DNA of 24,162 nucleotides from a virus (IMGVR_UViG_2690316224_000007); one strand, 5' to 3'. Positions 4,365 to 24,162 are shown, numbered from the stretch's first letter. The notes: generated by a model not told the origin, from the sequence alone. Numbers and translations: made by a program.

Positions 4365-4366
4365 TG

Positions 4367-7062: not shown

Positions 7063-7085
7063 AAAAAATTTGCTCCTTTGTCTTA

Positions 7086-7922: not shown

Positions 7923-7955
7923 AGTTTTTGCCCCTCTGACTGGTTCTTCAGTCAT

Positions 7956-8076: not shown

Positions 8077-9828
8077 ATGATTCAGGACGCTTTTGTGCGC
8101 CAGCGTGCGCGGCAACTTTACTGGCAGGGTTATCCGCCCGCAGAAATATCACGTCTGATGGGAATAAACCCGAACACGATTTATGCGTGGAAAAAACGCG
8201 ACCAGTGGGATGAAACGCCACCCGTGCAGCGTGTCACGCAGTCCATCGATGCGCGCCTCATCCAGCTTACTGAAAAACAGAATAAAACAGGTGGTGACTT
8301 CAAGGAAATAGACCTGCTGACCCGGCAGCTTAAAAAGCTGCATGATGGCCAGCCGGATGTGATGGCCGCAGGAAAGAAAGGCCGGGCGAAAAAACTCAAA
8401 AATCATTTCACGCCGGAACAGATTGCCGCACTGCGGGAAAAAATCATCAGCAGGCTGGAGTGGCATCAGCGGGGCTGGTTTGACTCCCTGACCCTTTGCA
8501 GGGAAGCCGGGATACGTAACAGGATGATCCTGAAATCCCGACAGATTGGGGCGACCTGGTATTTTGCACAGGAAGCACTGCTGATGGCGCTGCGTGACGA
8601 TGTGGCACAACCTTACCAGCGTAACCAGATTTTTTTGTCTGCGTCGCGTCGTCAGGCGTTCCAGTTTAAAAGCATTATTCAGAAGGCTGCGGCTGAAGTT
8701 GATGTGGAGCTGAAAGGGGGCGATAAAATCATCCTCTCCAACGGCGCAGAGCTGCATTTTCTTGGTACTTCTGCTGCGACGGCACAGTCCTACACGGGCA
8801 ATTTTTATTTTGATGAATTTTTCTGGGTCAGTCGCTTTGCTGAACTGCGCAAGGTGGCTGGCGCTATGGCAACCCTCAGCGGACTGCGGCGCACCTACTT
8901 CTCCACGCCATCCACCGAAACGCACGAGGCATACGCCTACTGGAATGGCGACCGCTGGAACGAGAAAAAGGCCACGCATAAACGCCAGCGTTTTTCTGTG
9001 GACTGGAAAACGCTGCATAACGGGCTTATCTGCCCTGACCGGACGTGGCGGCAAATTGTCACGCTGGAAGATGTGGTTAATCACGGCTGGAAACACACCG
9101 ATATTGACGAAATTCGTGATGAAAACACCGAAGACGAGTTCCGCAATCTCTATATGTGTGAGTTTGTCCGCGAAGGGGAATCGGCATTTAACCTGAATAT
9201 CCTGATTGGCTGCGGTGTTGACGGATACGACGACTGGAAAGACTGGAAACCTTTTGCTCCCCGCCCGATGGGGAATCGTCCGGTATGGATTGGGTATGAC
9301 GCAAACGGCAGCAGTGGAAACGGCGACAGCGGCGCTGTGTCCGTGGTGGTTCCTCCGGCTGTTCCTGGAGGCCGTTTTCGAACGGTGGAGACGCGACGCG
9401 TTCAGGGGCTGGAGTTTGAAGAACAGGCCAGAGTCATTGAAGAGTTCACGTGTCGCTACAACGTGGAACACATCGGCATTGATGTGACGGGCGGGAACGG
9501 GGAGGCTGTTTATCAGATAGTGAAACGGTTTTTCCCTGCTGCTATTCCGTACACCTTCACGCTGTCATCAAAACGGTCGCTGGTACTGAAAATGCTGCAA
9601 ATAATGCGTGCCGGGCGGTGGGAATATGATCGCGCCGAACGCGAGCTGGTCGCAGCCTTTAACGCCGTGCGTAAGGTGAAAACACCGGGCGGCTTTATCA
9701 CTTACGAAACGGACCGTGCGAGGGGGATCAGCCACGGCGACCTTGCGTGGGCAACCATGCTTGCTGTCATTAACGAACCGATTGGCGGCGAAGGGGAAAA
9801 CGAGCGTTTTACGGTTATGGAGTTCTGA
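8077..9828 (+). CDS. P: Terminase ATPase (large) subunit gpP
   Basis: 583-aa ORF, P2 P-sized, with a strong SD; stop overlaps the Q start (TGATG at 9826-9830). Confidence 0.9.
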   Translation: MIQDAFVRQRARQLYWQGYPPAEISRLMGINPNTIYAWKKRDQWDETPPVQRVTQSIDARLIQLTEKQNKTGGDFKEIDLLTRQLKKLHDGQPDVMAAGKKGRAKKLKNHFTPEQIAALREKIISRLEWHQRGWFDSLTLCREAGIRNRMILKSRQIGATWYFAQEALLMALRDDVAQPYQRNQIFLSASRRQAFQFKSIIQKAAAEVDVELKGGDKIILSNGAELHFLGTSAATAQSYTGNFYFDEFFWVSRFAELRKVAGAMATLSGLRRTYFSTPSTETHEAYAYWNGDRWNEKKATHKRQRFSVDWKTLHNGLICPDRTWRQIVTLEDVVNHGWKHTDIDEIRDENTEDEFRNLYMCEFVREGESAFNLNILIGCGVDGYDDWKDWKPFAPRPMGNRPVWIGYDANGSSGNGDSGAVSVVVPPAVPGGRFRTVETRRVQGLEFEEQARVIEEFTCRYNVEHIGIDVTGGNGEAVYQIVKRFFPAAIPYTFTLSSKRSLVLKMLQIMRAGRWEYDRAERELVAAFNAVRKVKTPGGFITYETDRARGISHGDLAWATMLAVINEPIGGEGENERFTVMEF

Positions 9829-10874
9829 TGAGCAGAAAAAATAAAAAAGTGCGCATGAGTTCACGCATTGATCTCGCTGATGCGCTCAGGAAAGAATCAT
9901 CGCTCAGTGCATTCACATTTGATGGTCCTTATCGCCTGACCGGGCATGACCTGCTGGACAATATGTACTGTGCTGATAACGGGCGGTGGTATGAAACCCC
10001 GGTGGACTGGTACAGTCTGGCAAGAGCCGCCCGGCAAACGTCCTGGCATCAGTCTGCGCTTTACTTTAAGCGTAATGTATTGCTCGGGTGCTACATCCCG
10101 CACCCGCTGCTTTCCCGGCAGGATTTCTCGGCGCTGGCGCTGGACTGGTTTGTGTTCGGTAACGCATTCCTTGAGCTTCGGAGCAATATGCTCGGCGAAC
10201 CGCTTAAATTACGGCACGCCCTGGCGAAATACATGCGACGCGGAAGCGATCTTGAATCATGGTGGTATGTGCAGGATGGCAAGGACGCGTTCCAGTTTCG
10301 CCCTGGCAAAGTGTGCCACCTGATGAATCCGGATATTAACCAGGAAATCTACGGCATGCCGGAATATCTTGGCGCATTACTCTCGGCCAGCCTTTCTCAT
10401 TCGGCGGACATGTTCAGAAAACTGTACTACGACAACGGATCCCACGCCGGGTGCATCATCTACATCGGTGCAGCGCAGGTAAACCGCGAAAGCATGGACT
10501 CCCTGAAAGAAACGTTACAGGGTGCGCGTGGTGGTGGTGCATTTAAAAACGTGCTCATTCATGCGCCCAACGGGGGCAAAGAAGGGGTGCAAATTTTGCC
10601 GTTCCAGCAGATCACCGCAAAGGATGAGTTCATGAATGTTAAGGCGGCATCCCGTGATGATGTGCTGGCTGCGCACCGCGTTCCGCCGCAACTGATGGGG
10701 GCGATGCCGGGCGAAAAAAGTGCGTTTGGTGATGTGGAGAAGGCCGCGCGGGTTTACGCAATTAACGAGCTGATGCCCGTCATGGAGGCCATGAAGCACA
10801 TCAATGACTGGCTTGGCGAAGAGGTGATCCGCTTTAACCCTTACGCACTGTTAGACACCCAGCCCACATCCTGA
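9828..10874 (+). CDS. Q: Portal protein gpQ
   Basis: 348-aa ORF translationally coupled to P; size and position as P2 Q; ends facing the expected cos region. Confidence 0.9.
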   Translation: MSRKNKKVRMSSRIDLADALRKESSLSAFTFDGPYRLTGHDLLDNMYCADNGRWYETPVDWYSLARAARQTSWHQSALYFKRNVLLGCYIPHPLLSRQDFSALALDWFVFGNAFLELRSNMLGEPLKLRHALAKYMRRGSDLESWWYVQDGKDAFQFRPGKVCHLMNPDINQEIYGMPEYLGALLSASLSHSADMFRKLYYDNGSHAGCIIYIGAAQVNRESMDSLKETLQGARGGGAFKNVLIHAPNGGKEGVQILPFQQITAKDEFMNVKAASRDDVLAAHRVPPQLMGAMPGEKSAFGDVEKAARVYAINELMPVMEAMKHINDWLGEEVIRFNPYALLDTQPTS

Positions 10875-10897
10875 CGCGCTTCGCTTGTCTGCTGCTT

Positions 10898-10920
10898 CGC
10901 CGGGGCATAAAAAATTTATG
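10898..10920 (+). other. Perfect 10-bp-stem hairpin (GGGGCATAAA-AAA-TTTATGCCCC), 24 bp after the Q stop
   Basis: Read directly from the sequence. No T-tract follows on either strand, so it is not a canonical intrinsic terminator; may be an RNA processing or protein-binding element. Confidence 0.4.
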
Positions 10921-11328
10921 CCCCGACTCTCCAGCTCCTGTATCAGTCAGATAATTTCACGACGCTTTCCTGCTGATTGCCATCATCGACAGTCAGACTC
11001 TTACGCAATCCCACCGCGTTGACTGCATGTTCTCGCCGTCTCAGTGCGATTTTGACGGCCTTACCTTTCACCCCATCAAATCAAAAGCCCTCACGTCTTT
11101 TTCACGCTCAGCGTGAGAAATACAGCCATTCTGTTCTATCTCTGCGACATCGTTCAGGGAATGCTATTTACCCCCTGAAACGCGGGCTGTTCCCCCGTCA
11201 CCTGCGCGCAGAAAAAACGCGTTTTTTTGTGCACGTACGGATCCTTGACGGATCCAGCCACCACGCGGGCCGGTAGTACAAAAAGTCGTTCAAAAAAATT
11301 GTGCAAACTTGTGCACTATCGTGCAAAC

Positions 11329-11351
11329 AAAAAAAGCGCCTTATCGGCGCT
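11329..11351 (-). terminator. Rho-independent terminator (minus strand)
   Basis: Minus-strand reading AGCGCC-GATAA-GGCGCT followed by TTTTTTT, a few nt after the stop of the 11361..11630 ORF. Confidence 0.55.
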
Positions 11352-11360
11352 TCAAAAGTA

Positions 11361-11630
11361 TCAATTGTTGCTGTGTATTAATCGCCAACCACGAACATAT
11401 GCTTCATAGGCATCTCTGTGCCTTACAGTTCCAGCCTGGCTAAACGGAATGTTAGCTAAAACTAAATCATTCTGAGCCATAGCGCGTCCTTCAAGCGCAT
11501 CTTTTATGCCTAGCTCAAAAGCACAGGCAGCGCATTTGTGCCGACCTTCTTGTCCTTGATATTCAGGGAGAGACAGAAATGTTGGATTATAACGATGAGG
11601 GTTCTTGCAAATACCTGTTTTAGCCCGCAC
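11361..11630 (-). CDS. Hypothetical protein (89 aa, GTG start; contains C-x-x-C)
   Basis: ORF in the AT-richer islet with a GAGG SD 8 nt before a GTG start and a terminator immediately downstream. No recognisable homology; could instead begin at an internal ATG (39 aa). Confidence 0.35.
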   Translation of the reverse strand: MRAKTGICKNPHRYNPTFLSLPEYQGQEGRHKCAACAFELGIKDALEGRAMAQNDLVLANIPFSQAGTVRHRDAYEAYVRGWRLIHSNN

Positions 11631-11765
11631 TTTATTTACCTCATAGGAAAAATATGCGTGCCTTTACAGAGGTGCGTGTAAGCAATAAAATATACGACGC
11701 ACATTTTGATTTACTTCGGAAGGCACGCATATCAGGTTAAGTGAGTCCGACCGAGTTTTACGCCC

Positions 11766-11799
11766 CAATAGTTGCTGCTATTGGGGCGTTTTGCATGGA
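11766..11799 (+). terminator. Intrinsic terminator-like hairpin (plus strand)
   Basis: 12-bp perfect stem ACGCCCCAATAG / CTATTGGGGCGT with a 6-nt loop, followed by TTTTG. No annotated plus-strand gene ends here, so it may end a small transcript (see findings). Confidence 0.45.
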
Positions 11800-11994
11800 C
11801 AATGCCGCGCAATTATCTTGTCGCTCACAATGCGAACGATCTTACAAAAAGGCACATTACTGTCAAGATAATTGATCGTTTTAATCGATAGATAATAGAC
11901 AATCTATTTGTTTAACAGATCGATTATTGAAGTAAGTGTGCCAGATGGAATGATACTGTCTCTATAAACGTGAGCATTTTTCGCGCAGATGCTT

Positions 11995-12306
11995 TTACTC
12001 AGGAAATAACGCCCGGATATTCCCAGCCATCTGGCTGGTTATCTTAGCCACTGGTGCAGACTGTGCTTCAAACTTTTTTGAGCTGATTTGTGTCACAGGT
12101 AATATCTCATCATCAGCCCATGCGGCCAGTCGGTAAGCCTCTGCCGGATTCGTCTTCAGAAGTGCCAGCCCGGCCAGAAAAGCCACGCGTTGGCCGCTTT
12201 TGCGGGCTTCTGGTGTAAGGCTGTCCAGCCAGGCGCATGCTTCTCCTTCGTTCTTGACGGCAGCTGGCTTCAGATAGAAACTTATTCTTCTGGTTGGTGT
12301 CGTCAT
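11995..12306 (-). CDS. parR: ParR/StbB-like centromere-binding protein (ribbon-helix-helix type)
   Basis: 103-aa ORF 4 nt downstream of parM, with an AAGGAG SD in the parM 3' end. Blocks RRISFYLKP, ACAWLDSL..E, RVAFLAGLAL and NIRALFPE align with plasmid R1 ParR as recalled. Confidence 0.65.
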   Translation of the reverse strand: MTTPTRRISFYLKPAAVKNEGEACAWLDSLTPEARKSGQRVAFLAGLALLKTNPAEAYRLAAWADDEILPVTQISSKKFEAQSAPVAKITSQMAGNIRALFPE

Positions 12307-12310
12307 TGGT

Positions 12311-13270
12311 TTACTCCTTGTTCATTGCGTACAGCCCATTAACCAGAGCAAATTGTGGCACCCCGTCCGCGATGAAAGTCGCATTAACTCCGCAGGCTTC
12401 GCGGATAGCGGGTGCCACAATCTCCGCCCCGCCACCGACAACCATCACCCGCCCGTAACCCGAAAAAACCGCCAGAGCGCGGATCACGCGTTGTTTCAGT
12501 GTTTCTTCCTTTTCACGAATAATCGCCATCAGGCTGGCGTAATGCGCGTCATTGTGGATGTGCTGGCGCAACCAGGCTTCATCATGGCGATGTTCGATAA
12601 TGGTATTGGCGATGTGGTGACTGGTGCGCATACCGTTAGTGGCCATCACCGACAGTACGGCATCGGCCATCAGAGAAACGCCTACGTGTGGATCGCAAAA
12701 CACCTGGCTGATACCTGCCAGTTGCCCCTGAACCTTTGCCACATCCAGCGTGGTTCCGCCCAAATCCACAATCAGCAGGGATTCAAACGGACTCATGTCA
12801 GCCAGTGCCTTAAAGCCAGCCGGAATGGATTCAGGCATAACCCGCACGTTACGGATAGTGAATGCTTCGCCGTTCTGGTACTCCACCGGGCGCATAACGT
12901 TCGCTTTTTTGCGGTTGATGTTGGCCATGTCCGGCTGTGCGTTTGTGTCGAAATACTCGCTCAGTGGCAGGGTGACAACCACATCCACCTCCCGTGGCGT
13001 GATGCCTGATTTGACCAGCGCGTGATGAATGGCAATGACATTCACATCGCTGTACTGGTATTGCGTGTCGGTCGTCTGGACAAAGCGATCGCTGACCGGA
13101 TCAAAACCATAGCGCACGCCATCAAGCATGTAGTTCGCGGGCTGCGTGCCACCGAACGGCGCAGACCATTCCGACTTGAAGCTGTTCGGGCTGATGGCGT
13201 TGCGGCGTTCGCCGTTCTCAGTCCATGCCAGCTTGATGTTGGTGGAGCCGTCGTCGATACAAATTCTCAT
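12311..13270 (-). CDS. parM: ParM/StbA actin-like segregation ATPase
   Basis: 319-aa ORF with a near-complete set of ParM blocks matching R1 ParM as recalled: IDDGSTNIKL, SPNSFK, YSDVNV, HHAL, TLPL, RKKAN, FTIRNVRVMPESIPAG, SLLIVDLGGTTLD, GVSL, LKQRV, FSGYGRVMVVGGGAE, LVNGLY. AGGAAAA SD before the ATG. Confidence 0.9.
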   Translation of the reverse strand: MRICIDDGSTNIKLAWTENGERRNAISPNSFKSEWSAPFGGTQPANYMLDGVRYGFDPVSDRFVQTTDTQYQYSDVNVIAIHHALVKSGITPREVDVVVTLPLSEYFDTNAQPDMANINRKKANVMRPVEYQNGEAFTIRNVRVMPESIPAGFKALADMSPFESLLIVDLGGTTLDVAKVQGQLAGISQVFCDPHVGVSLMADAVLSVMATNGMRTSHHIANTIIEHRHDEAWLRQHIHNDAHYASLMAIIREKEETLKQRVIRALAVFSGYGRVMVVGGGAEIVAPAIREACGVNATFIADGVPQFALVNGLYAMNKE

Positions 13271-13301
13271 CTCGATTTTCCTTATGTTGATTAATTAATC
13301 G

Positions 13302-13415
13302 TTTACGGGATTTTTAAATCCCGTTTTCGCCTGTTTTGTGCGCGCTTCATATATCGCGGCGCGTTTTTTGCTCATTTACGGGATTTGTGAATCCCGTTTC
13401 TGTCTGTTTTTTGTT
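13302..13415. repeat. Two ~39-bp direct repeats, each with a palindrome (ACGGGATTTTTAAATCCCGT / ACGGGATTTGTGAATCCCGT), spanning the A stop codon and the parM upstream region
   Basis: Repeat 1 at 13302..13340, repeat 2 at 13377..13415, 75 bp apart; each has CCCGTTTy and CTGTTTT sub-motifs. A TTAATTAAT -10-like element lies between repeat 1 and the parM SD. Confidence 0.5.
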
Positions 13416-16169
13416 TCCACTGGTCAGGCTACCCCGCAGCAGGTCTGCTTTGCGGCGGGCGCGTTCAGTGGTTTCACTGATTCTCTGTGCGTGCTCTGCG
13501 TCACGAATGGCGCGCAGCATGTCAGAAAGCACGGTAACGGGGGTTTTCATGGTGTTCTGGTCCTGCTGAAGTGTGGATGCCAGGCGTGCGGCGGCTTCGG
13601 GGTCTGATGTCCCCAGCTGTTCCAGATAGCTGGCGACCGGGTTATGGCGGATCTCCGTACTGCTTACGCCGTGGTTACGGCTCAGGCGCTGCCAGAGCTG
13701 CGTGATCCGGCTGTCCGGTCGGGTATCCGGTTTGCGTACAATTTCAAATCCCTGCGGTGCAATGTTGCTGCCGTCAACGTACAGACTGCCGCCCCGTAAC
13801 AGGTGCTGCATCTGCTGTTCACCGATATGCAGGCCGAGAGATTCAGCAGACTCCCGCCATTCTTTAGCGAGTAGTTCGTGGTTATCAGGCAAAGGCCGCT
13901 GCTGTTTGCGGCTCTGTGTCCAGCTCTGCATTTCATCACGGCTGTTTTTTGCCTGTTTGTCACGAAGCGAACGCATCAGCGCCCGGCGTTCGTGCCGTTT
14001 CAGTGAGCGCATCCATTCGTTCACTTCAACGCCGTCAGGGAGCTGCGGCCACGGTGCTGGCCGTTCTTCCGGCTGTTCTGTCCCGTTGTTGTCCGTTTCC
14101 TGTACACGGGGACAGTTATTGCCACGAGTCCAAGGGGCGGCAGGGCCGCCCTGAAGGTCAAAACCATTTTCGCGGGCGCTGTCTTCCGCTTCCGGTTTGC
14201 GTCTTACCAGCTTCCAGTTATCCGGATGCGTGCATACGCGGGAAGACTCCCCAATGAGCGGCGACCAGATCCCGTAAATCTGTACACTCTGCTCGCCGTA
14301 ATCGTTCAGCTCATCTGCGAGGTCGTAGGCTGTGCGAATCAGGTAGTCCTTGCGCGGAACAAGTACGCCCCCCTGTTTTTCAATGTAGGTGGCAAAACAT
14401 CCGGCATCAGCGGCAGCGAGTACCGCATCCATTGCGTCATCCTTCAGCCGTTGCGGGCCTTCCGGGTTGCGTGCCATCTGGCTGGCAAGGCGGCGGAGTT
14501 CACGCCACACCTGACGGGAGGGGATGCCAAAGAACTGGAACTGGCGGACCCGGTGAAGGCGCGCCCAGCCGATGGCACGCTCCACGCTCTCGGCCATTGA
14601 TTTACCTGTTTCGTGGTCAACGCGTGGCTTGCCCGTTTTCGGGTCGATGCCATCCACGGCACGGCTGTCCAGGTTTTTCCCGATGTAGGTGGCGATGTAG
14701 CTGGTCGGTGTGCCTTTTGAGCCGTCGACGTACTCCGCTTTAAAACGCGGAGTTATGTCATCGCCCAGCTCGTGACGATCTTCCTGAATGGCAATATCGC
14801 GGGTGTGGGACACAATGGTGTCGATTTCTTCCGGATGAGCAAAGACCATCATATGCCAGTGCACGGTGCCGTCATGGTGAGGCTCCACCGTGCGGATGCC
14901 ATACCAGCGCAGGCCGTCGCGGTTCAGTTTCTTGCGGACCGCCGCAAAAAACGAGTTAACCAGGTAATCGCTGGAGTCGCGCATAGTGGCCCCGTTCCAT
15001 TTGGGATTCGGATGACCGTTCTCCGTTGTTGCGTGGTATTTTGACGGGCAGGTGACAGTCAGAAACACCGCTCTGTCGCCACGGGCTTCGGCCAGAAGTT
15101 CCAGCCCCTTCATGGTGGCCATCATTTCTGCCTTACGGTGAACCGGGTTACTTACTCCCGCGTAATACACCGTCTCGAGATCAATCGTGAACCCGTCTTC
15201 ATTTTCCAGCATGAAACTTTTCAGGAAATCGCGTGTTTTCTCGCGCTGTGCGCGAAACTCGCTTAACGCATCCTGGCTCAGATAGGGCGATGTTTTTCTG
15301 GAAACCAGACAGGCGGCGCGGAGTTGTTCTTCTCTCCACTCGCAACGTAACAGCCACAGTTTGCGTTTCCACCATTCCGCACAGGTCAGGCGAAGGACTG
15401 CGCCCGGCAGCAGCTCCGTGTCCGGTTCGTTCCTCCGGTCTTTATCTGTTGTCAGTGCGTCATAATGTGGAGGCATGATGTGCAGGTGTAACGCCATGCG
15501 GGCCAGCATCTGATACGTCTTCAGCGTTACATCCATGGTCAGTTCGCCATCGGTCGCGCCAAAGCCATCGCAGAGTTTTTCGAAGGTGCTGCTGAACATC
15601 GCCGCCGTCATGGTGGCCAGCGTCTGTATCTGGTGTTTGTTGAGCTGCGGCAGGTAAAGCAAATCGTCCAGGCGTTCGCGTCCGGCAAGGGAGCGATAAC
15701 CCGGTGTCAGCCAGCGTCCGTCAGTGCGATCCAGACGTTCGAATATTTTGCGCAGGGTTCCGCGTGCATAGCGTTCCGCCTGCCAGCTCTTTTTGCCTTT
15801 CCGGCGATCGACTTCCTGTTTTTTGCGCAGGAAGGAGAGGTGGCGAATAAGCGGATCGCGCAGATAGGACGGCAGCAGGCGCAGCGAGGCCATGGCTTCA
15901 TCCACCGTGCCGCGTGCCTGTCTTCTGGCGTCTCCTGCCAGCGTGATGGTTTTGTCCTGTTTTTCCTGTGCGTCCAGGCTTTTATTAATCAGGTTGCCCA
16001 GTGGCGTGGCAGAGAACGCCGCATCAGCCTTTTCCTGTCGGTGCTCGTTCTCTGCCTGGTAGGCATCCAGCCAGGAGGAAAGCGCAGATTCAGGTGCGGG
16101 GATCCCCGTTCCTTCACGCCCCACTGCGTGGCGCGGTTGTTGCCAGTCCCTGATGTACTCTGTCGTCAT
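13347..16169 (-). CDS. A: Replication initiation endonuclease gpA (rolling-circle HUH initiator), 940 aa
   Basis: HUH motif seen as VEPHHDGTVHWHMMVF and the two-tyrosine catalytic motif as TSYIATYIGKN (Y-x3-Y). Position downstream of the small early genes matches P2 A; about 180 aa longer than P2 A at the C-terminus. Confidence 0.88.
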   Translation of the reverse strand: MTTEYIRDWQQPRHAVGREGTGIPAPESALSSWLDAYQAENEHRQEKADAAFSATPLGNLINKSLDAQEKQDKTITLAGDARRQARGTVDEAMASLRLLPSYLRDPLIRHLSFLRKKQEVDRRKGKKSWQAERYARGTLRKIFERLDRTDGRWLTPGYRSLAGRERLDDLLYLPQLNKHQIQTLATMTAAMFSSTFEKLCDGFGATDGELTMDVTLKTYQMLARMALHLHIMPPHYDALTTDKDRRNEPDTELLPGAVLRLTCAEWWKRKLWLLRCEWREEQLRAACLVSRKTSPYLSQDALSEFRAQREKTRDFLKSFMLENEDGFTIDLETVYYAGVSNPVHRKAEMMATMKGLELLAEARGDRAVFLTVTCPSKYHATTENGHPNPKWNGATMRDSSDYLVNSFFAAVRKKLNRDGLRWYGIRTVEPHHDGTVHWHMMVFAHPEEIDTIVSHTRDIAIQEDRHELGDDITPRFKAEYVDGSKGTPTSYIATYIGKNLDSRAVDGIDPKTGKPRVDHETGKSMAESVERAIGWARLHRVRQFQFFGIPSRQVWRELRRLASQMARNPEGPQRLKDDAMDAVLAAADAGCFATYIEKQGGVLVPRKDYLIRTAYDLADELNDYGEQSVQIYGIWSPLIGESSRVCTHPDNWKLVRRKPEAEDSARENGFDLQGGPAAPWTRGNNCPRVQETDNNGTEQPEERPAPWPQLPDGVEVNEWMRSLKRHERRALMRSLRDKQAKNSRDEMQSWTQSRKQQRPLPDNHELLAKEWRESAESLGLHIGEQQMQHLLRGGSLYVDGSNIAPQGFEIVRKPDTRPDSRITQLWQRLSRNHGVSSTEIRHNPVASYLEQLGTSDPEAAARLASTLQQDQNTMKTPVTVLSDMLRAIRDAEHAQRISETTERARRKADLLRGSLTSGNKKQTETGFTNPVNEQKTRRDI

Positions 16170-16175
16170 ACTGAT

Positions 16176-16541
16176 TTACTGCGTCATACCGTTCAGGGTG
16201 TCACGGCAAACGGCAGCCAGCCGCTGAATTTCCAGCACGGTGTCTTCTGTGTCGGCATAGCGATGTGTGATGCGGATGCTGTCGGCAATCACATCGACGA
16301 TTGCAGAGGATGGGCGCTGGTAAATGCCAATAACGGACGGAGTGCCACCTTCAATGCGGTAAAGCCTGTAATTTCCCTCGTGGCTGTCAATCATGTAGCG
16401 ACCATCAATAACAATCTTTCCGTCAGCGAGCTGCGGTACAGGCAGGGATTTCAGGTACATGTCATAACGTTCACGCACGCGAACGGCAAGATCACGCTCT
16501 GTGTTGAGCAGGTATTCAAGAAAGTCGTTGGCGAGAATCAT
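16176..16541 (-). CDS. Hypothetical early protein (121 aa) immediately upstream of A
   Basis: AAGAGGA SD 8 nt upstream of the ATG; stop lies 6 nt before the A start. Present in all three repeat copies with a few amino-acid differences. No recognisable family. Confidence 0.6.
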   Translation of the reverse strand: MILANDFLEYLLNTERDLAVRVRERYDMYLKSLPVPQLADGKIVIDGRYMIDSHEGNYRLYRIEGGTPSVIGIYQRPSSAIVDVIADSIRITHRYADTEDTVLEIQRLAAVCRDTLNGMTQ

Positions 16542-16613
16542 TGCGGCAATCCTCTTGTTACAGATGTGCGAAGGCCTCCCGCCGCAAGGTGCAGGAAAGG
16601 CCCGGAACAGGAA

Positions 16614-16844
16614 TTAATGGAGTTTGTTTTGCTGCTGGATGAGCTGCTGAAGCTCGCGCAGATCATCCGCCAGATAACTGAAAACAGCGGATGAGTAGAG
16701 GTTTGAAAGTTCGCAGCTACGCTCATGCAGCATATTGATGTGCATGATTTTAGCGACGCGGAATGCGCGGGAAAGTCTGCGGTTGATTTCAGTCTGGATG
16801 TGACGACGCTCCGCGATAGCGCGGTGCTGTTTGCGGTTTGCCAT
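16614..16844 (-). CDS. Hypothetical small basic protein (76 aa)
   Basis: AGAGG SD 7 nt upstream of the ATG; basic helical N-terminus (NRKQHRAIAERRHIQTEINRRL); identical in all three copies. Confidence 0.5.
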   Translation of the reverse strand: MANRKQHRAIAERRHIQTEINRRLSRAFRVAKIMHINMLHERSCELSNLYSSAVFSYLADDLRELQQLIQQQNKLH

Positions 16845-17211
16845 GGTGTGGCCTCTTTGGTTGTAAGTTTTGAAAACTCACCATCCAGAGCTGCGAAACT
16901 GTGGGTGGCGAGACGTACGGGGTTCGCAGTACCGGCAACCAAAGAACCCGGCCCGACCGAAGTCGGCCCCGTACGCCCCGCCATAATTCTGACGCGAAAA
17001 AAACGTGGCAATACAGTACGCACAAAAAAACCGCTGGCGCGGTTGTGCGCTTTGGTTGTCAGCAGGCTGCGAAACCCGGCACCCGTTTTATGAGGTGCAG
17101 CGAAAATGTAACCTGACTGATTGCGGCATGGCAAGCGGTTTTTTTGTGAGAACGGCATACTAAAAAATCCTGATACTGCTCCGGCCAGCGGTTTGCACTG
17201 GCCGGGTGTCA
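16845..17211 (-). ncRNA. Structured non-coding spacer between the SPFH gene and the 76-aa gene (candidate terminator cluster or small RNA)
   Basis: Minus-strand reading shows, in order, an 8-bp-stem hairpin CCGGCCAG..CTGGCCGG just after the SPFH stop, a hairpin AACCGC-GCCA-GCGGTT followed by TTTTTTT, a second T7 run, and a CCGAC-UUCG-GUCGG tetraloop hairpin. The only long ORF across it is low-complexity and out of frame with the 76-aa gene. Identical copies at 20135..20501 and 21523..21889. Confidence 0.4.
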
Positions 17212-17636
17212 TTACTTCACGGGAACGAACGGAACAGCGGTGTTACTGGTCATGTATTGCGGCAGCGTGCCGTTCCATTTGTTGATCGCTTCCAGCTCCA
17301 TAACGCCGGGATTCTGGCGCAGAGCTTCGCCGCGTAAACGAATGGCGTCGGCTTCAGCCTGGGCTTTTGTGCGAATGGCATCGGCCTGTCCGGCAGCTTC
17401 TGCGCGCAACATGTTGGCTTCTGCTTCGCGCTGCTTGACTTCCTGTTCGCGTTGCAGGGTTTTCTGGTTTGCCGTGACTTTGGCATTAATGCTGTCGATA
17501 ACGGTTGGCGGGTATTCCGGCTTACCCACATAAGAGAGGCTCATTACCTGAATGCCGATAGGTGTCGTTTCTGCCTGAATGTCTTTAAGTGCTGAATCCA
17601 GCAGTTCAGACTTGCCACCGTCGATAAATTTATCGN
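17212..17636 (-). pseudogene. 3' fragment of the SPFH lipoprotein gene (copy 1), truncated at an N
   Basis: Colinear with 21890..22314 of the full-length gene; coding continuity ends exactly at the ambiguous base at 17637. Confidence 0.65.
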
Positions 17637-17637
17637 G
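17637..17637. other. Single N: probable contig join
   Basis: SPFH-gene sequence lies directly before the N and mid-gene A sequence directly after it, which cannot be one contiguous locus. Confidence 0.8.
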
Positions 17638-19459
17638 TGCGAATCAGGTAGTCTTTGCGTGGAACAAGTACGCCGCCCTGTTTCTCTATGTAGGTGGCAA
17701 AACATCCGGCATCAGCGGCAGCGAGTACCGCATCCATTGCGTCATCCTTCAGCCGTTGCGGGCCTTCCGGGTTGCGTGCCATCTGGCTGGCAAGGCGGCG
17801 GAGTTCACGCCACACCTGACGGGAGGGGATACCAAAGAACTGGAACTGGCGGACACGGTGAAGGCGCGCCCAGCCGATGGCGCGTTCCACGCTCTCGGCC
17901 ATTGATTTTCCGGTTTCGTGGTCAACGCGTGGCTTGCCCGTTTTCGGGTCGATGCCATCTACGGCGCGGCTGTCCAGGTTCTTTCCGATGTAGGTGGCGA
18001 TGTAGCTGGTTGGCGTGCCTTTTGAGCCGTCGACGTACTCCGCCTTAAAGCGTGGGGTAATATCATCACCCAGCTCGTGACGATCTTCCTGAATGGCAAT
18101 ATCGCGGGTGTGGGACACAATGGTGTCGATTTCTTCCGGATGAGCAAAGACCATCATATGCCAGTGCACGGTGCCGTCATGGTGAGGCTCCACCGTGCGG
18201 ATGCCATACCAGCGCAGGCCGTCGCGGTTCAGTTTCTTGCGGACCGCCGCAAAAAACGTGTTAACCAGGTAATCGCTGGAGTCGCGCATGGTGGCCCCGT
18301 TCCATTTGGGATTCGGATGACCGTTCTCTGTTGTGGCGTGGTATTTTGACGGGCAGGTGATGGTCAGAAACACCGCTTTGTCGCCACGGGCTTCGGCCAG
18401 AAGTTCCAGCCCCTTCATGGTGGCCATCATTTCTGCCTTACGGTGAACCGGGTTACTTACTCCCGCGTAATACACTGTCTCGAGATCAATCGTGAACCCG
18501 TCTTCGTTTTCCAGAATGAAACTTTTCAGGAAATCGCGTGTTTTCTCGCGCTGTGCGCGAAACTCGCTTAACGCGTCCTGGCTCAGATAGGGCGATGTTT
18601 TTCTGGAAACCAGACAGGCGGCGCGGAGTTGTTCTTCCCGCCACTCGCAACGTAACAGCCACAGTTTGCGTTTCCACCATTCCGCACAGGTCAGGCGAAG
18701 GATTGCGCCCGGTAACAGTTCCGTATCCGGATCGCTCTTGTTCAGAGCTTCGTAATGTGGCGGCATGGCGTGCAGGTGTAACGCCATGCGGGCCAGCATC
18801 TGATACGCCTTCAGCGTTACATCCATGGTCAGTTCGCCATCGGTCGCGCCAAAGCCATCGCAGAGTTTTTCGAAGGTGCTGCTGAACATCGCCGCCGTCA
18901 TGGTGGCCAGCGTCTGTATCTGGTACTGGTTGAGCTGCGGCAGGTAAAGCAAATCATCCAGGCGTTCGCGTCCGGCAAGGGAGCGATAACCCGGTGTCAG
19001 CCAGCGGTGGTCGGTGCGGTCCAGACGTTCGAATATTTTGCGCAGTGTTCCGCGCGCGTAGCGTTCAGCCTGCCAGCTCTTTTTGCCTTTCCGGCGATCG
19101 GCTTCCTGTTTTTTGCGCAGGAAGGAGAGGTGGCGAATAAGCGGATCGCGCAGATAGGACGGCAGCAGGCGCAGCGAGGCCATGGCTTCATCCACCGCGC
19201 CGCGTGCCTGTTTTCTGGCGTCTCCTGCCAGTGTGATGGTTTTGTCCTGTTTTTCCTGTGCGTCCAGGCTTTTATTAATCAGGTTGCCCAGCGGCGTGGC
19301 GGAGAACGCCGCATCAGCCATTTCCTGGCGGCGCTCGTTCTCTGCCCGGTAGGCATCCAGCCAGGAGGAAAGCGCGGATTCAGGAACGGGGATCCCCGTT
19401 CCTTCACGCCCCACTGCGTGGCGCGGTTGTTGCCAGTCCCTGATGTACTCTGCCGTCAT
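17638..19459 (-). pseudogene. A: gpA copy 2: N-terminal ~607 codons, truncated at the N
   Basis: Colinear with 14340..16169 but with many substitutions and an indel (HYDALTTDKDRRNEPDTELL versus HYEALNKSDPDTELL), i.e. a divergent allele rather than an exact duplicate. Confidence 0.7.
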
Positions 19460-19465
19460 AGTGAT

Positions 19466-19831
19466 TTACTTCGTCATGCCATTCAGGGTGTCGCGGCAGA
19501 CGGCAGCCAGCCGCTGAATTTCCAGCACGGTGTCTTCTGTGTCGGCATGGCGATGTGTGATGCGGATGCTGTCGGCAATCACATCGACGATTGCAGAGGA
19601 TGGGCGCTGGTAAATGCCAATAACGGACGGGGTGCCATCTTCAATGCGGTAAAGCCTGTAATTTCCCTCGTGGCTGTCAATCATGTAGCGACCATCAATA
19701 ACAATCTTTCCGTCAGCGAGCTGCGGTACAGGCAGGGATTTCAGGTACATGTCATAACGTTCACGCACGCGAACGGCAAGATCACGCTCTGTGTTGAGCA
19801 GGTATTCAAGAAAGTCGTTGGCGAGAATCAT
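19466..19831 (-). CDS. 121-aa early protein, copy 2
   Basis: Differs from copy 1 at three residues (G to D, Y to H, terminal Q to K). Confidence 0.55.
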   Translation of the reverse strand: MILANDFLEYLLNTERDLAVRVRERYDMYLKSLPVPQLADGKIVIDGRYMIDSHEGNYRLYRIEDGTPSVIGIYQRPSSAIVDVIADSIRITHRHADTEDTVLEIQRLAAVCRDTLNGMTK

Positions 19832-19903
19832 TGCGGCAATCCTCTTGTTACAGATGTGCGAAGGCCTCCCGCCGCAAGGTGCAGGAAAGGCCCGGAACAG
19901 GAA

Positions 19904-20134
19904 TTAATGGAGTTTGTTTTGCTGCTGGATGAGCTGCTGAAGCTCGCGCAGATCATCCGCCAGATAACTGAAAACAGCGGATGAGTAGAGGTTTGAAAGT
20001 TCGCAGCTACGCTCATGCAGCATATTGATGTGCATGATTTTAGCGACGCGGAATGCGCGGGAAAGTCTGCGGTTGATTTCAGTCTGGATGTGACGACGCT
20101 CCGCGATAGCGCGGTGCTGTTTGCGGTTTGCCAT
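19904..20134 (-). CDS. 76-aa basic protein, copy 2
   Basis: Identical to copy 1. Confidence 0.45.
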   Translation of the reverse strand: MANRKQHRAIAERRHIQTEINRRLSRAFRVAKIMHINMLHERSCELSNLYSSAVFSYLADDLRELQQLIQQQNKLH

Positions 20135-20501
20135 GGTGTGGCCTCTTTGGTTGTAAGTTTTGAAAACTCACCATCCAGAGCTGCGAAACTGTGGGTGGCG
20201 AGACGTACGGGGTTCGCAGTACCGGCAACCAAAGAACCCGGCCCGACCGAAGTCGGCCCCGTACGCCCCGCCATAATTCTGACGCGAAAAAAACGTGGCA
20301 ATACAGTACGCACAAAAAAACCGCTGGCGCGGTTGTGCGCTTTGGTTGTCAGCAGGCTGCGAAACCCGGCACCCGTTTTATGAGGTGCAGCGAAAATGTA
20401 ACCTGACTGATTGCGGCATGGCAAGCGGTTTTTTTGTGAGAACGGCATACTAAAAAATCCTGATACTGCTCCGGCCAGCGGTTTGCACTGGCCGGGTGTC
20501 A

Positions 20502-20768
20502 TTACTTCACGGGAACGAACGGAACAGCGGTGTTACTGGTCATGTATTGCGGCAGCGTGCCGTTCCATTTGTTGATCGCTTCCAGCTCCATAACGCCGGG
20601 ATTCTGGCGCAGAGCTTCGCCGCGTAAACGAATGGCGTCGGCTTCAGCCTGGGCTTTTGTGCGAATGGCATCGGCCTGTCCGGCAGCTTCTGCGCGCAAC
20701 ATGTTGGCTTCTGCTTCGCGCTGCTTGACTTCCTGTTCGCGTTGCAGGGTTTTCTGGTTTGCCGTGAC
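20502..20768 (-). pseudogene. 3' fragment of the SPFH lipoprotein gene (copy 2), truncated at the N run
   Basis: Colinear with 21890..22156; ends at NNNNNN. Confidence 0.65.
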
Positions 20769-20774
20769 NNNNNN
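20769..20774. other. NNNNNN: probable scaffold gap or contig join
   Basis: Flanked by SPFH-internal sequence on the left and the A 5' end on the right. Confidence 0.8.
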
Positions 20775-20847
20775 CGGGGATCCCCGTTCCTTCACGCCCC
20801 ACTGCGTGGCGCGGTTGTTGCCAGTCCCTGATGTACTCTGCCGTCAT
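20775..20847 (-). pseudogene. A: gpA copy 3: first 24 codons only
   Basis: MTAEYIRDWQQPRHAVGREGTGIP then the N run. Confidence 0.65.
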
Positions 20848-20853
20848 AGTGAT

Positions 20854-21219
20854 TTACTTCGTCATGCCATTCAGGGTGTCGCGGCAGACGGCAGCCAGCC
20901 GCTGAATTTCCAGCACGGTGTCTTCTGTGTCGGCATGGCGATGTGTGATGCGGATGCTGTCGGCAATCACATCGACGATTGCAGAGGATGGGCGCTGGTA
21001 AATGCCAATAACGGACGGAGTGCCACCTTCAATGCGGTAAAGCCTGTAATTTCCCTCGTGGCTGTCAATCATGTAGCGACCATCAATAACAATCTTTCCG
21101 TCAGCGAGCTGCGGTACAGGCAGGGATTTCTGGTACATGTCATAACGATCACGCACGCGAGCGGCAAGATCACGTTCTGTGTTGAGCAGGTATTCAAGAA
21201 AGTCGTTGGCGAGAATCAT
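20854..21219 (-). CDS. 121-aa early protein, copy 3
   Basis: A third allele (substitutions in the RVRDRYDMYQKSL segment relative to copies 1 and 2). Confidence 0.55.
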   Translation of the reverse strand: MILANDFLEYLLNTERDLAARVRDRYDMYQKSLPVPQLADGKIVIDGRYMIDSHEGNYRLYRIEGGTPSVIGIYQRPSSAIVDVIADSIRITHRHADTEDTVLEIQRLAAVCRDTLNGMTK

Positions 21220-21291
21220 TGCGGCAATCCTCTTGTTACAGATGTGCGAAGGCCTCCCGCCGCAAGGTGCAGGAAAGGCCCGGAACAGGAA

Positions 21292-21522
21292 TTAATGGAG
21301 TTTGTTTTGCTGCTGGATGAGCTGCTGAAGCTCGCGCAGATCATCCGCCAGATAACTGAAAACAGCGGATGAGTAGAGGTTTGAAAGTTCGCAGCTACGC
21401 TCATGCAGCATATTGATGTGCATGATTTTAGCGACGCGGAATGCGCGGGAAAGTCTGCGGTTGATTTCAGTCTGGATGTGACGACGCTCCGCGATAGCGC
21501 GGTGCTGTTTGCGGTTTGCCAT
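21292..21522 (-). CDS. 76-aa basic protein, copy 3
   Basis: Identical to copies 1 and 2. Confidence 0.45.
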   Translation of the reverse strand: MANRKQHRAIAERRHIQTEINRRLSRAFRVAKIMHINMLHERSCELSNLYSSAVFSYLADDLRELQQLIQQQNKLH

Positions 21523-21889
21523 GGTGTGGCCTCTTTGGTTGTAAGTTTTGAAAACTCACCATCCAGAGCTGCGAAACTGTGGGTGGCGAGACGTACGGGG
21601 TTCGCAGTACCGGCAACCAAAGAACCCGGCCCGACCGAAGTCGGCCCCGTACGCCCCGCCATAATTCTGACGCGAAAAAAACGTGGCAATACAGTACGCA
21701 CAAAAAAACCGCTGGCGCGGTTGTGCGCTTTGGTTGTCAGCAGGCTGCGAAACCCGGCACCCGTTTTATGAGGTGCAGCGAAAATGTAACCTGACTGATT
21801 GCGGCATGGCAAGCGGTTTTTTTGTGAGAACGGCATACTAAAAAATCCTGATACTGCTCCGGCCAGCGGTTTGCACTGGCCGGGTGTCA

Positions 21890-22720
21890 TTACTTCACGG
21901 GAACGAACGGAACAGCGGTGTTACTGGTCATGTATTGCGGCAGCGTGCCGTTCCATTTGTTGATCGCTTCCAGCTCCATAACGCCGGGATTCTGGCGCAG
22001 AGCTTCGCCGCGTAAACGAATGGCGTCGGCTTCAGCCTGGGCTTTTGTGCGAATGGCATCGGCCTGTCCGGCAGCTTCTGCGCGCAACATGTTGGCTTCT
22101 GCTTCGCGCTGCTTGACTTCCTGTTCGCGTTGCAGGGTTTTCTGGTTTGCCGTGACTTTGGCATTAATGCTGTCGATAACGGTTGGCGGGTATTCCGGCT
22201 TACCCACATAAGAGAGGCTCATTACCTGAATGCCGATAGGTGTCGTTTCTGCCTGAATGTCTTTAAGTGCTGAATCCAGCAGTTCAGACTTGCCACCGTC
22301 GATAAATTTATCGGTGGTCATTTTGCTGGCCAGTCGGTTGAGTGCGTCGGCGATCTTCTGGCGCAGGTCAGTGTCGGTAATGTCATCCACGCCTTTGCGG
22401 TAGGTCTGAAACACTGTAGTAACTTTGGATGGATCAACCTTGTAGGCCACACCGATGTGATAGCCGATGGTTGTGCCGTCACTCATCTGAAAGCTGAACG
22501 GCTCATCGTAGGTCTTCATTTGTTTGAAGGTCGGGAAGATGTAAACCTCGGTATTCCAGCCAGTCCAGTAGCGACCAACGCCAACCACTTCGCCAACGCC
22601 TTTGTCGTCGCCCAGCTTGTTGACTTTGATGCCCACATTACCTGGCTCAACGCGATCGCAGCCAACCAGCAGGATGGCGGCAAAAAGCGGGAGAATCTGA
22701 AAGAGTCTGAATTTCTTCAT
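21890..22720 (-). CDS. SPFH/Band-7 (stomatin/prohibitin/HflK-C-like) lipoprotein, predicted periplasmic-face inner-membrane anchored
   Basis: 276-aa ORF with signal peptide and lipobox LLVGC followed by Asp at +2 (C-D-R-V). SPFH-like core and a C-terminal Ala/Glu/Gln/Arg-rich coiled-coil (REQEVKQREAEANMLRAEAAGQADAIRTKAQAEADAIRLRGEAL). ATGA overlap with the upstream membrane-protein gene. Confidence 0.8.
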   Translation of the reverse strand: MKKFRLFQILPLFAAILLVGCDRVEPGNVGIKVNKLGDDKGVGEVVGVGRYWTGWNTEVYIFPTFKQMKTYDEPFSFQMSDGTTIGYHIGVAYKVDPSKVTTVFQTYRKGVDDITDTDLRQKIADALNRLASKMTTDKFIDGGKSELLDSALKDIQAETTPIGIQVMSLSYVGKPEYPPTVIDSINAKVTANQKTLQREQEVKQREAEANMLRAEAAGQADAIRTKAQAEADAIRLRGEALRQNPGVMELEAINKWNGTLPQYMTSNTAVPFVPVK

Positions 22721-22920
22721 TGTTTAATTTCCTTGATGTACTTACTGAAAAGGCGAACAACGCCTGCCGGGTACAACATGGCAATGAAAATGCCCAGCAA
22801 TACCAGGAAGGAGCTGTCTGATGAAATCATTCGGGGGAGTACCCCTACATACAGAATGAGAGAGACGAGGACGCATACCAGCGCCCATGCATATGCACGA
22901 AACCATGTCTTGTTGTTCAT
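22717..22920 (-). CDS. Small two-helix membrane protein (67 aa), translationally coupled to the SPFH gene
   Basis: ATG at 22920 with an AAGGG SD; product MNNKTWFRAYAWALVCVLVSLILYVGVLPRMISSDSSFLVLLGIFIAMLYPAGVVRLFSKYIKEIKQ has two hydrophobic helices. The longer track ORF from 23052 overlaps the upstream gene out of frame. Confidence 0.5.
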   Translation of the reverse strand: MNNKTWFRAYAWALVCVLVSLILYVGVLPRMISSDSSFLVLLGIFIAMLYPAGVVRLFSKYIKEIKQ

Positions 22921-22930
22921 GTTGCGGCCC

Positions 22931-23230
22931 TTACTGGTTAAGGAAAAAATCGAAAACCTTGTCAATGCGTTGCAGCAGCTCTTGTTGTATTGCTTCCGGC
23001 GTTTCCGGTTCGCCTGGCGCCTCCAACGTCGCGCAGAAATCAGCGATTTCATGATGGAGCGTCAGGCGAATGGCAGGAGCCGTGGTTCTGGCGTGCTCCA
23101 GCTCATCCAGCAATGCCAGCGCAGCAGACGGCGAGAGCATTGCGCGAAATGCCAGTAATTTTTGAGGTGTTGCCATTCGTTGCAGGGCAAATGCCAGTTC
23201 GCGTAGCTTCTGGTGGTTGATGGTGCTCAT
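22931..23230 (-). CDS. Hypothetical early protein (99 aa, acidic, helical)
   Basis: ATGA overlap with the upstream gene stop; no family recognised. Confidence 0.5.
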   Translation of the reverse strand: MSTINHQKLRELAFALQRMATPQKLLAFRAMLSPSAALALLDELEHARTTAPAIRLTLHHEIADFCATLEAPGEPETPEAIQQELLQRIDKVFDFFLNQ

Positions 23231-23493
23231 GTTCTGGCTTCCTTCAGTAGCTGGTTAAACATGTGAGTAAGTGGATTGCTACACCCGAACGGCATCGGGT
23301 TTACGTGGTAAGAAGCCTGGCCTCCAGTTTTGCGAGCGCGACCACCTGTGCTGCGGTTTGTTCTGATGACTAAGCCGCCGCGCCAAAGTTGGCGTAACTC
23401 AGCATTAATGGCTGTGGTTGGAGTATTCAGTGCTGCGGCGATCTCTCCGCCGCTACACCCCGGATGAGTAGCGATGTAGTCCAGAATGGTCAT
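23227..23493 (-). CDS. Putative winged-helix DNA-binding protein (88 aa)
   Basis: N-terminal ILDYIATHPGCSGGEIAAALNTPTTAINAELRQLWRGGLV resembles an HTH followed by a wing; ATGA overlap with the upstream gene. Confidence 0.45.
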   Translation of the reverse strand: MTILDYIATHPGCSGGEIAAALNTPTTAINAELRQLWRGGLVIRTNRSTGGRARKTGGQASYHVNPMPFGCSNPLTHMFNQLLKEART

Positions 23494-23693
23494 CTGCGTG
23501 GCTCCTGTACCTGTCGGATAAGGTTTACCCGCGCCACATTAGTGGCGCAGAAGTAAGTGCCGTCAGTGAGGTAGATGTGATGTGCATCCTTTTCCGAACG
23601 ATGTTTGTCGATAGTGGTAATCAGTCGTTCGTCGACCTCGTATTCGCGGTCTCTGGAGGTGAGGCGAACGACAGGAAAATGCTTAATTGCCAT
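23490..23693 (-). CDS. Hypothetical early protein (67 aa)
   Basis: TAATG overlap with the upstream gene; no family recognised. Confidence 0.4.
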   Translation of the reverse strand: MAIKHFPVVRLTSRDREYEVDERLITTIDKHRSEKDAHHIYLTDGTYFCATNVARVNLIRQVQEPRR

Positions 23694-23956
23694 TACACCC
23701 TCTTGGCTTTATGTCTGTATTTGAGCTTTTCTATTTCTTCTTTTTGTTCTTTTAATGTTCTTATGGCTGTGAAAACATTAAAGCCCATAAAATGTGCTCT
23801 GTTCGCTAATGTAATACTGGCACCTTTGTTAGCTATATCATCTTCAATATCAGTGAAATACTGACTGATTTCTTTTAGTGCGGCGCAAAGCTTTGCGAGA
23901 TCTCGCCCCCTGTCAAAATATGCATCCTTCAGTATTTTTTGATTTGTCCTGAGCAT
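23693..23956 (-). CDS. Hypothetical first gene of the early operon (87 aa from ATG 23956; track ORF extends to 24010)
   Basis: GAGG SD 5 nt upstream of ATG 23956, and a TATATATA -10-like element just upstream; AT-rich codon usage unlike the structural genes. Identity (Cox/Apl/CII-like) unknown. Confidence 0.4.
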   Translation of the reverse strand: MLRTNQKILKDAYFDRGRDLAKLCAALKEISQYFTDIEDDIANKGASITLANRAHFMGFNVFTAIRTLKEQKEEIEKLKYRHKAKRV

Positions 23957-24048
23957 GCTAACCTCGTGTTTATATATATGGATACCTCCGCGAGTGCGGA
24001 TTGTTTTCATGTTTTCTTATTTAATCGTGTGTTTTATTTGTGCTGTTA

Positions 24049-24159
24049 TTCTTCAGTGAAAAAACGCTCAATCTTTTTTACTGAATGAATAATTCGCATA
24101 ATCCCAATAGCGCAGGCCACCGAAATAATCAGAACAAGCCATGAGATAAATATACTCAT
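24049..24159 (-). CDS. Possible small hydrophobic peptide (36 aa) at the window edge
   Basis: MSIFISWLVLIISVACAIGIMRIIHSVKKIERFFTEE, one predicted transmembrane helix. The ATG is 3 nt from the window end, so no upstream signal is visible and the ORF may extend further. Confidence 0.2.
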
Positions 24160-24162
24160 GCG

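Follow-up and report, generated by a model that had tools for sequence, protein, structure and literature searches.

The closest described relatives of the locus studied here are the early operons of P2-like phages. In phage P88, gp15 (SF19_gp15, YP_009113058.1) is a 121-aa protein, annotated as hypothetical, whose gene is flanked by those of gp14, a derepression protein, and gp16, a replication endonuclease. P88 carries the block that contains it in a single copy, in the order SPFH gene, derepression gene, 121-aa gene, gene A, and ParM gene. In P2, the small early-operon protein Orf83, of the DUF5405 family (PF17399), is encoded directly upstream of gene A, which its gene overlaps. In phage 186, too, gene A begins where an ORF ends, and according to the 186 record A appears to be translated only if ribosomes reach the end of that preceding ORF. 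However, this coupling ORF is PAPS-reductase-like, and the DUF5405 gene, which the record calls 'not essential', is located one gene further upstream. The early-operon position immediately upstream of gene A is thus found in P88, in P2, and in the locus described below, with phage 186 as the exception. P2 and 186 also differ from the P88 type in carrying DUF2732 and DksA/TraR-like genes where the latter has an isrK/C4 RNA and derepression module. A literature search on DUF5405 and orf83 returned nothing usable.

A second group of described systems bears on regulation. In the c4-icd-ant operon of P1/P7 and the CI RNA-epsilon-alpha operon of P4, a C4-family RNA is processed out of the operon leader, and its loop is complementary to repeats, one located upstream and the other at the ribosome-binding site of the gene that follows. 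On the P4 map, the replication gene stands at the distal end of the operon, as it does here. A related operon, isrK-orf45-anrP, is found in Gifsy-1 (PMC4825925).

We analyzed a stretch of DNA of 24,162 bp (the window), the whole of which is the WGS record CYDA01000046.1 of the E. coli draft assembly GCA_001285085.1. DNA searches identified it as part of a P88-like prophage (Xuanwuvirus, Peduoviridae; P2-type). ORF listing and family scans placed terminase and portal genes on the plus strand, and capsid, ParM/StbB-like partition, 940-aa gene A, and SPFH lipoprotein genes on the minus strand (Table 1). In DNA sequence, the block that runs from gene A to the SPFH gene shares 95.7% identity with phage P88 and as much as 98.1% with complete E. 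coli chromosomes, and a DNA search recovered it from 1,684 of 5,426 complete E. coli genomes. Overall, approximately 1,000–1,700 of these 5,426 genomes have the element, at up to 3–5 places per genome, and the 121-aa gene is present in roughly one fifth of them. We also noted that gene A is followed directly downstream by plasmid-type partition genes, ParM (StbA) and StbB-like (11995–13270, minus strand), and that 36 of the 2,073 matching places in the E. coli genome search were on plasmid records; persistence of the element as a plasmid is a possibility. The SPFH gene sits between the early genes and the RNA module, and its 3' part recurs at 92–93% identity in Stx-converting phages and on many E. 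coli plasmids of ~90 kb, a distribution that suggests a mobile accessory (moron-like) SPFH/Band-7 gene.

Table 1. Features of the replication-start region and of its further copies, with their positions in the window.
Feature	Coordinates	Strand	Evidence
121-aa gene, copy 1 (Y95, Q121)	16176..16541	-	ORF; phrog_3237 E 3.9e-54; P88 gp15 homologue
121-aa gene, copy 2 (G65D), scaffold piece 2	19466..19831	-	ORF
121-aa gene, copy 3 (A20, D24, Q30), scaffold piece 3	20854..21219	-	ORF
Gene A, complete, 940 aa, replication initiator endonuclease	13347..16169	-	Pfam Phage_GPA E 1e-130; phrog_91
gpA fragment, second variant, first ~608 codons, cut by scaffold join	17637..19459	-	
gpA 5' stub, ~25 codons, start of scaffold piece 3	20775..20847	-	
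76-aa 'derepression' (P4 epsilon-like) gene, copy 1	16614..16844	-	Pfam PF25738 E 6e-7; phrog_3688 E 3.5e-45
76-aa gene, identical further copies	19904-20134; 21292-21522	-	
C4-type antisense RNA gene, copy 1	16901..16988	-	Rfam RF01695, 87.1 bits
C4 RNA gene, further copies	20191-20278; 21579-21666	-	
isrK-type RNA element, copy 1	17024..17098	-	Rfam RF01394, 65.9 bits
isrK RNA, further copies	20314-20388; 21702-21776	-	
SPFH/Band-7 lipoprotein gene, complete in piece 3 only	21890..22720	-	Pfam Band_7 E 3e-30
SPFH gene, 3' fragments	17212-17635; 20502-20768	-	
Single N, piece 1/piece 2 junction, mid-SPFH to mid-gpA	17636..17636		
NNNNNN, piece 2/piece 3 junction	20769..20774		

Self-BLAST showed three co-oriented copies of the block in the window: positions 14332–17478 matched 17637–20768 (96.8% identity over 3,147 nt), 16097–17639 matched 20775–22316 (99.2% identity), and 19387–20768 matched 20775–22156 (99.6% identity). 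Three 366-nt ORFs for the 121-aa protein, all on the minus strand, exist as called, and Rfam placed isrK and C4 RNA genes upstream in each copy. An earlier reading of the window, made from the sequence only, had observed that the three 121-aa ORFs differ while the 76-aa protein and the spacer are invariant, and direct comparison of the copies confirmed this. There is no difference among the three copies from 16542 to 17478 (937 nt), a stretch that comprises the spacer, the 76-aa ORF, the C4 and isrK RNA genes, and the 3' part of the SPFH gene; every difference in the part that the copies share falls within 16163–16497. Copies 1 and 2 of the block differ at 86 of 3147 positions (2.7%). The uneven spread of these differences is not due to chance, since ~26 would be expected in the identical 937 nt and none was seen.

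A codon-level comparison of the three copies, which had been proposed as a check, gave 12 variable nucleotide sites in the 121-aa ORFs, six synonymous and six non-synonymous. Copy 3 carries V20A, E24D, and L30Q, copy 2 carries G65D, and copy 1 carries H95Y and K121Q. Five of these had been listed correctly before (G/D, Y/H, Q/K, E/D, L/Q), but the sixth, V/A, had been missed. The view that gpA diverges more also held: between copies 1 and 2, gpA differs at 81 of 1,821 aligned nt (4.4%), with a 5-codon indel, over 607 codons, whereas the 121-aa gene differs at 8 of 366 nt (2.2%). The gpA changes are 55 synonymous and 26 non-synonymous (pN/pS 0.14), and the within-window pN/pS of the 121-aa gene is 0.19–0.62, on 6–10 sites. 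gpA is complete (940 aa) in copy 1 only; it is cut by an N at about residue 608 in copy 2, and copy 3 has the first ~25 codons only, such that the third gpA comparison rests on 73 nt. Upon inspection of the two gpA variants, we noted that the indel lies near residue 241 (TDKDRRNEPD vs NKSDPD), and that the non-synonymous changes cluster in the first ~300 codons. The window gpA, at 940 aa against the 761-aa A implied by P2 coordinates 28034–30319, has a long C-terminal extension that matches phrog_6857.

The only non-ACGT characters in the window, seven in all, are the N at 17636 and the NNNNNN at 20769–20774, and they coincide exactly with the block junctions found by self-BLAST (17635/17637 and 20768/20775). 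At junction 1, the middle of the SPFH gene abuts codon ~608 of the second gpA; at junction 2, the 3' part of the SPFH gene abuts codon ~25 of the third gpA. No complete E. coli genome out of 5,426 covered at least 80% of a 600-nt query across junction 1, nor was junction 2 contiguous in any of them. Instead, the two halves of the junction 2 query mapped separately in complete genomes, 1,382 bp apart, at the ends of one normal copy. Based on the Ns at the junctions, the absence of these junctions elsewhere, and the single-copy block of P88, we conclude that the 'tandem copies' appear to be contigs of the same region that were chained by the scaffolder instead of being overlapped. The contigs 1–17635, 17637–20768, and 20775–24162 would have been laid end to end with N spacers. 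The SSPACE scaffolder adds a single n where contigs that are expected to overlap show no overlap. A genuine P88-like genome would carry the block once, as SPFH gene, isrK/C4 RNA, 76-aa gene, 121-aa gene, and gene A.

The sequence-only reading had spoken of three block copies; these do not appear to form a tandem array in the genome, given that their junctions sit on the window's only Ns. If the immunity/replication-start region had truly undergone partial amplification in tandem, with the Ns as mere low-quality bases, this would fit the co-oriented, head-to-tail arrangement and the very short N runs (1 and 6 nt). However, both junctions fall on the only Ns in 24 kb (a coincidence with a chance of ~1e-8 by our estimate), and the mid-SPFH/mid-gpA fusions are absent from 5,426 complete genomes; a test for genuine tandem duplication, which asks for junctions that are sequenced through and recur in other assemblies, failed at both of them. 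Moreover, a recent amplification predicts identical copies, yet the differences reach 3.2% with a strong synonymous excess, and two of the three alleles are common, independent natural alleles. We regard such an amplification as extremely improbable.

Next, we considered whether the differences between the chained copies are real. Within a collection of 15 billion proteins, the copy 1 protein (allele 1) had exact matches on 847 contigs and the copy 3 protein (allele 3) on 443, and only CYDA01000046.1 had an exact match to the copy 2 protein (G65D). The copy 3 DNA is one synonymous nucleotide away from the allele of E. coli UMNF18, and natural alleles exist within 1–2 nt of each copy. Sequencing or assembly error had been named as the explanation that would undo the observation, and for most sites it fails on alleles 1 and 3 with their 847 and 443 contigs. 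It can draw on the G65D allele being known from CYDA01000046.1 only, and on copies 2 and 3, which show a mosaic-like relation to each other at gene positions 194 and 201. Random errors would not, however, produce 55 synonymous to 26 non-synonymous changes in gpA, an excess that is a signature of evolutionary divergence and not of error, and the nearby natural alleles argue against errors as well; at most, the G65D site is an error or a private mutation. That all of the differences are errors in a single prophage is, in our judgment, barely credible. Collectively, these matches indicate that the three copies largely carry naturally occurring variants of the prophage region.

Two or three related prophages within a single isolate are the likeliest source of the variants. 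Complete E. coli genomes contain up to three copies of the 121-aa gene, at separate places, and the frequency of the element and its multiple places per complete genome make polylysogeny a sufficient and common explanation. Nevertheless, the perfect identity over ~940–1,140 nt among the pieces is unusual for co-resident prophages. In four other genomes with two co-resident P88-like prophages (locus pairs L014/L029, L031/L033, L011/L044, and L050/L055), the copies differ in the isrK/C4/76-aa region by 3–55 nt per feature, and the 121-aa gene differs by 10–17 nt. The identical stretch may be one collapsed consensus instead of three independent sequences. A mixed culture or contaminating strains could have supplied the variants in place of several prophages in one genome, with the rest of the interpretation unchanged: the window itself fits mixture and polylysogeny equally, and the identical ~1-kb shared region is atypical of co-resident prophages. 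An element that resides in ~1,000–1,700 of 5,426 genomes, at up to 3–5 places each, speaks against the need for such a mixture, which we consider unlikely. Polylysogeny in the sequenced isolate most likely gave rise to the variants.

To place the three copies in a population, we measured diversity across 81 related loci (80 IMG/VR loci and the P88 locus, L001). The 121-aa gene had a pi of 0.023 and a piN/piS of 0.17, its diversity being the lowest among the local genes, spacers aside. The thirds of gpA had pi values of 0.032–0.042 (piN/piS 0.09–0.22) and the SPFH gene 0.032 (piN/piS 0.044), and pi reached 0.079 for the isrK RNA and 0.096 for the C4 RNA. The most variable feature was the 76-aa gene (pi 0.119, piN/piS 0.46). 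A piN/piS of 0.17 reflects ordinary purifying selection, within the range of gpA. It had been proposed that the 121-aa gene is under a different constraint from its invariant 76-aa neighbor; among the 81 loci this contrast was reversed (pi 0.023 vs 0.119). The contrast within the window is an accident of three samples or an assembly effect in an N-joined scaffold. The 121-aa gene belongs to the replication module and is conserved, and variability resides in the 76-aa/RNA module.

Among the 76-aa alleles we distinguished three sharply divergent classes, at 0–5, 17–27, and 51–60 differences per 231 nt, of which the window carries the commonest. The variation of the 76-aa protein is concentrated in the center (approximately residues 21–63) and the termini are conserved, so that the center of the protein looks like a specificity determinant, possibly one that matches different repressors. 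The 121-aa gene has 46 DNA alleles in a mosaic pattern across the 81 loci, and its allele 1 was found linked with all three 76-aa classes; recombination therefore separates the two genes. The allelic differences of the 121-aa gene would then be ordinary polymorphism under purifying selection, reshuffled by recombination.

A host-interaction or counter-defence factor under diversifying selection would give another account of the variation. Half of the 12 within-window differences are non-synonymous, and copies 2 and 3 give a pN/pS of 0.62, albeit on 6 sites only. At the population level, a test for positive selection failed: piN/piS is 0.17, and pi is below that of gpA, the 76-aa gene, and the RNA genes, the lowest locally apart from spacers. 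In addition, 60 of the 121 residues are invariant among relatives down to 67% identity, PADLOC gave no match, and the elevated piN/piS (0.46) and the discrete classes belong to the 76-aa neighbor. Diversifying selection on the 121-aa protein is thus very improbable, and ordinary polymorphism is the reading we retain.

To find out what the 121-aa protein might be, we searched profile and structure collections. It matched phrog_3237 from end to end (E 3.9e-54, residues 1–121 against profile positions 1–127 of 129), with no match in Pfam even at E≤10 and none in NCBIfam or PADLOC. The window protein itself did not reach the gathering score of PF17399 (21.6 bits), but homologues did: P0043, which is 69% identical, scored 26.5 bits, P0070 scored 29.0, and P0080 scored 37.7. 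A word-indexed search found enterobacterial relatives only, at no less than 67% identity, and a HMMER scan with the family profile found 32 representatives, including full-length proteins at 23–53% identity. Nine of the 17 members of the family alignment A2 matched Pfam DUF5405 at E≤0.01. In hhalign, A2 aligned with P2 Orf83 at an E of 5.9e-5 and a probability of only 65% over 77 columns at 18% identity, residues 42–119 corresponding to residues 4–89 of Orf83.

The structure prediction that had been suggested pointed to the same family. An AlphaFold2 model built from the 17-sequence alignment reached a pLDDT of 84.9, replacing an earlier one from eight close sequences (pLDDT 70), and shows a four-stranded meander flanked by two helices on its N-terminal and two on its C-terminal side. 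Among the viral models of BFVD, the best match that Foldseek found for it was a DUF5405 protein of Salmonella phage TR2 (E 1.5e-3, probability 1.00, TM 0.56/0.67), which offers moderate support for a fold common to DUF5405 proteins, with predicted models on both sides of the comparison. Foldseek against the PDB found nothing better than E 0.2 (TM <0.4); these matches were too weak for the AP2-domain and antitoxin identities that they offered. Likewise, mL48 was rejected as an identity, as it came from an insignificant (E ≥ 0.05) PDB sequence search with the family profile. By transitive evidence, then, the 121-aa protein is probably an N-terminally extended member of the DUF5405 (P2 Orf83-type) family. 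Its predicted architecture is a helical hairpin of ~40 residues, which is extra relative to P2 Orf83, followed by a DUF5405 core of a four-stranded beta meander and two helices. Its difference from P88 gp15 is allelic only. Taken jointly, the scaffold arrangement, the natural origin of the alleles, and the DUF5405-family assignment are likely to be correct.

We then examined the position of the gene relative to gene A. The 121-aa gene has an AGAGGA Shine-Dalgarno sequence 8 nt before its ATG, and its TAA stop lies 6 nt before the ATG of gpA, which lacks an obvious Shine-Dalgarno sequence. This spacing of stop, 6 nt, and ATG before gene A is invariant in 81 of 81 related loci. Relatives of the 121-aa protein down to 24–31% identity also sit directly upstream of a Phage_GPA gene, as is the case in four of the four distant contexts with an identified downstream gene (L083, L084/L085, L089, and L091); L092, where a cut ORF follows at the equivalent position, and L090, which ends at the gene, stand outside this count. 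L083 is another P2-like prophage, L084/L085 is a small integrase-bearing element, and in L089 a gap of 276 nt separates the homologue from A. The genes upstream of distant homologues are often a 76-aa 'Derepression' family gene or a 'Phage_ASH' ORF. We also noted that L084 (GCA_017655185.1, JAEMGT010000082.1) carries two integrases, an HTH gene, a 'Phage_ASH' ORF, the distant homologue (171 aa), and a gpA of 844 aa, among which no structural genes lie. Possibly, this small element is satellite-like and replicates by means of a P2-type module.

This anatomy suggests that the 121-aa gene would be the middle cistron of the early operon, with a good Shine-Dalgarno sequence of its own, and that its translation would deliver ribosomes to gene A by translational coupling, such that both proteins are made together. 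The 121-aa protein would then probably assist the cis-acting initiator gpA at the origin. The earlier proposal that the position before A marks a replication accessory holds up as a reasonable deduction from the kinship with Orf83/DUF5405 and from the relatives before Phage_GPA. Coupling to gene A and an accessory role for gpA, taken together, are nonetheless a tentative proposal, to which we give slightly less than an even chance. The purifying selection seen in the codon data shows that the 121-aa protein itself matters, hence translational coupling would not be the sole role of its gene. Nor is coupling universal in the family, because an ORF intervenes in 186 and a 276-nt gap in L089. Since the 186 record calls its DUF5405 gene non-essential, any role of DUF5405 towards gpA would be dispensable in that phage.

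A more elaborate possibility is that the 121-aa protein is an allele-matched partner of gpA, made in a ratio that coupling fixes, such that there is no cross-talk among prophages, while the RNA module is gene-converted. If so, variation in the 121-aa protein and in the N-terminus of gpA would let co-resident P88-like prophages replicate separately, and the shared antirepressor/RNA module would be homogenised between prophages by gene conversion. We think it quite improbable.

Upstream of the two protein genes, the C4 loop CTTTGGTTG (operon strand, 16936–16944) is complementary to CAACCAAAG at 16855–16863 and at 17050–17058. The former site precedes the ATG of the 76-aa gene by 11 nt, beside its Shine-Dalgarno sequence, and the latter is inside isrK. 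This 9-mer and its complement occur nine times in the window, against 0.22 expected, and the other two copies have the same layout. ViennaRNA duplexfold of C4 against the leader returned an uninformative whole-length duplex (z = –2.2). By analogy to P1 c4-ant and P4 CI, we propose that a C4-type RNA may gate the operon: the ribosome-binding site of the 76-aa gene would be the gate of the early operon, as the predicted target of the C4-type antisense RNA encoded upstream. The first protein of the window operon is, as in P4, a member of the epsilon-like 'derepression' family. By contrast, the replication protein here is a P2-type gpA nickase and not the alpha primase-helicase of P4, and no counterpart of the 121-aa gene was detected in P1 or P4; on the side of the window, the comparison of regulation is drawn from the sequence.

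A 224-aa ORF at 16538–17212 (minus strand; also at 19828–20502 and 21216–21890) matches Pfam Phage_ASH (E 7e-7), and its counterpart bears the RefSeq annotation 'ash family protein'. The match (residues 35–126) corresponds to nt ~16834–17110, that is, to the isrK and C4 RNA genes. The ORF overlaps the 76-aa gene in another frame, and the frame is broken in 19 of 63 related loci. On these grounds, we did not accept it as a real neighboring gene; what is called 'Ash' here probably results from translating conserved RNA genes.

These findings call for caution with draft scaffolds, in which short runs of N can make variants of a single region look like tandem paralogues; three copies joined in this manner tell nothing reliable about constraint. 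As a P88-type relative of P2 Orf83, the 121-aa gene is common, and its variation is ordinary. A gene so far labeled 'hypothetical' can now be linked to the P2 Orf83/DUF5405 family, and its relatives stand directly before gene A in each context with sufficient identified downstream sequence, from P2-like phages to small integrative elements. On this basis, the 121-aa gene would be a sensible choice for a first functional test of DUF5405.
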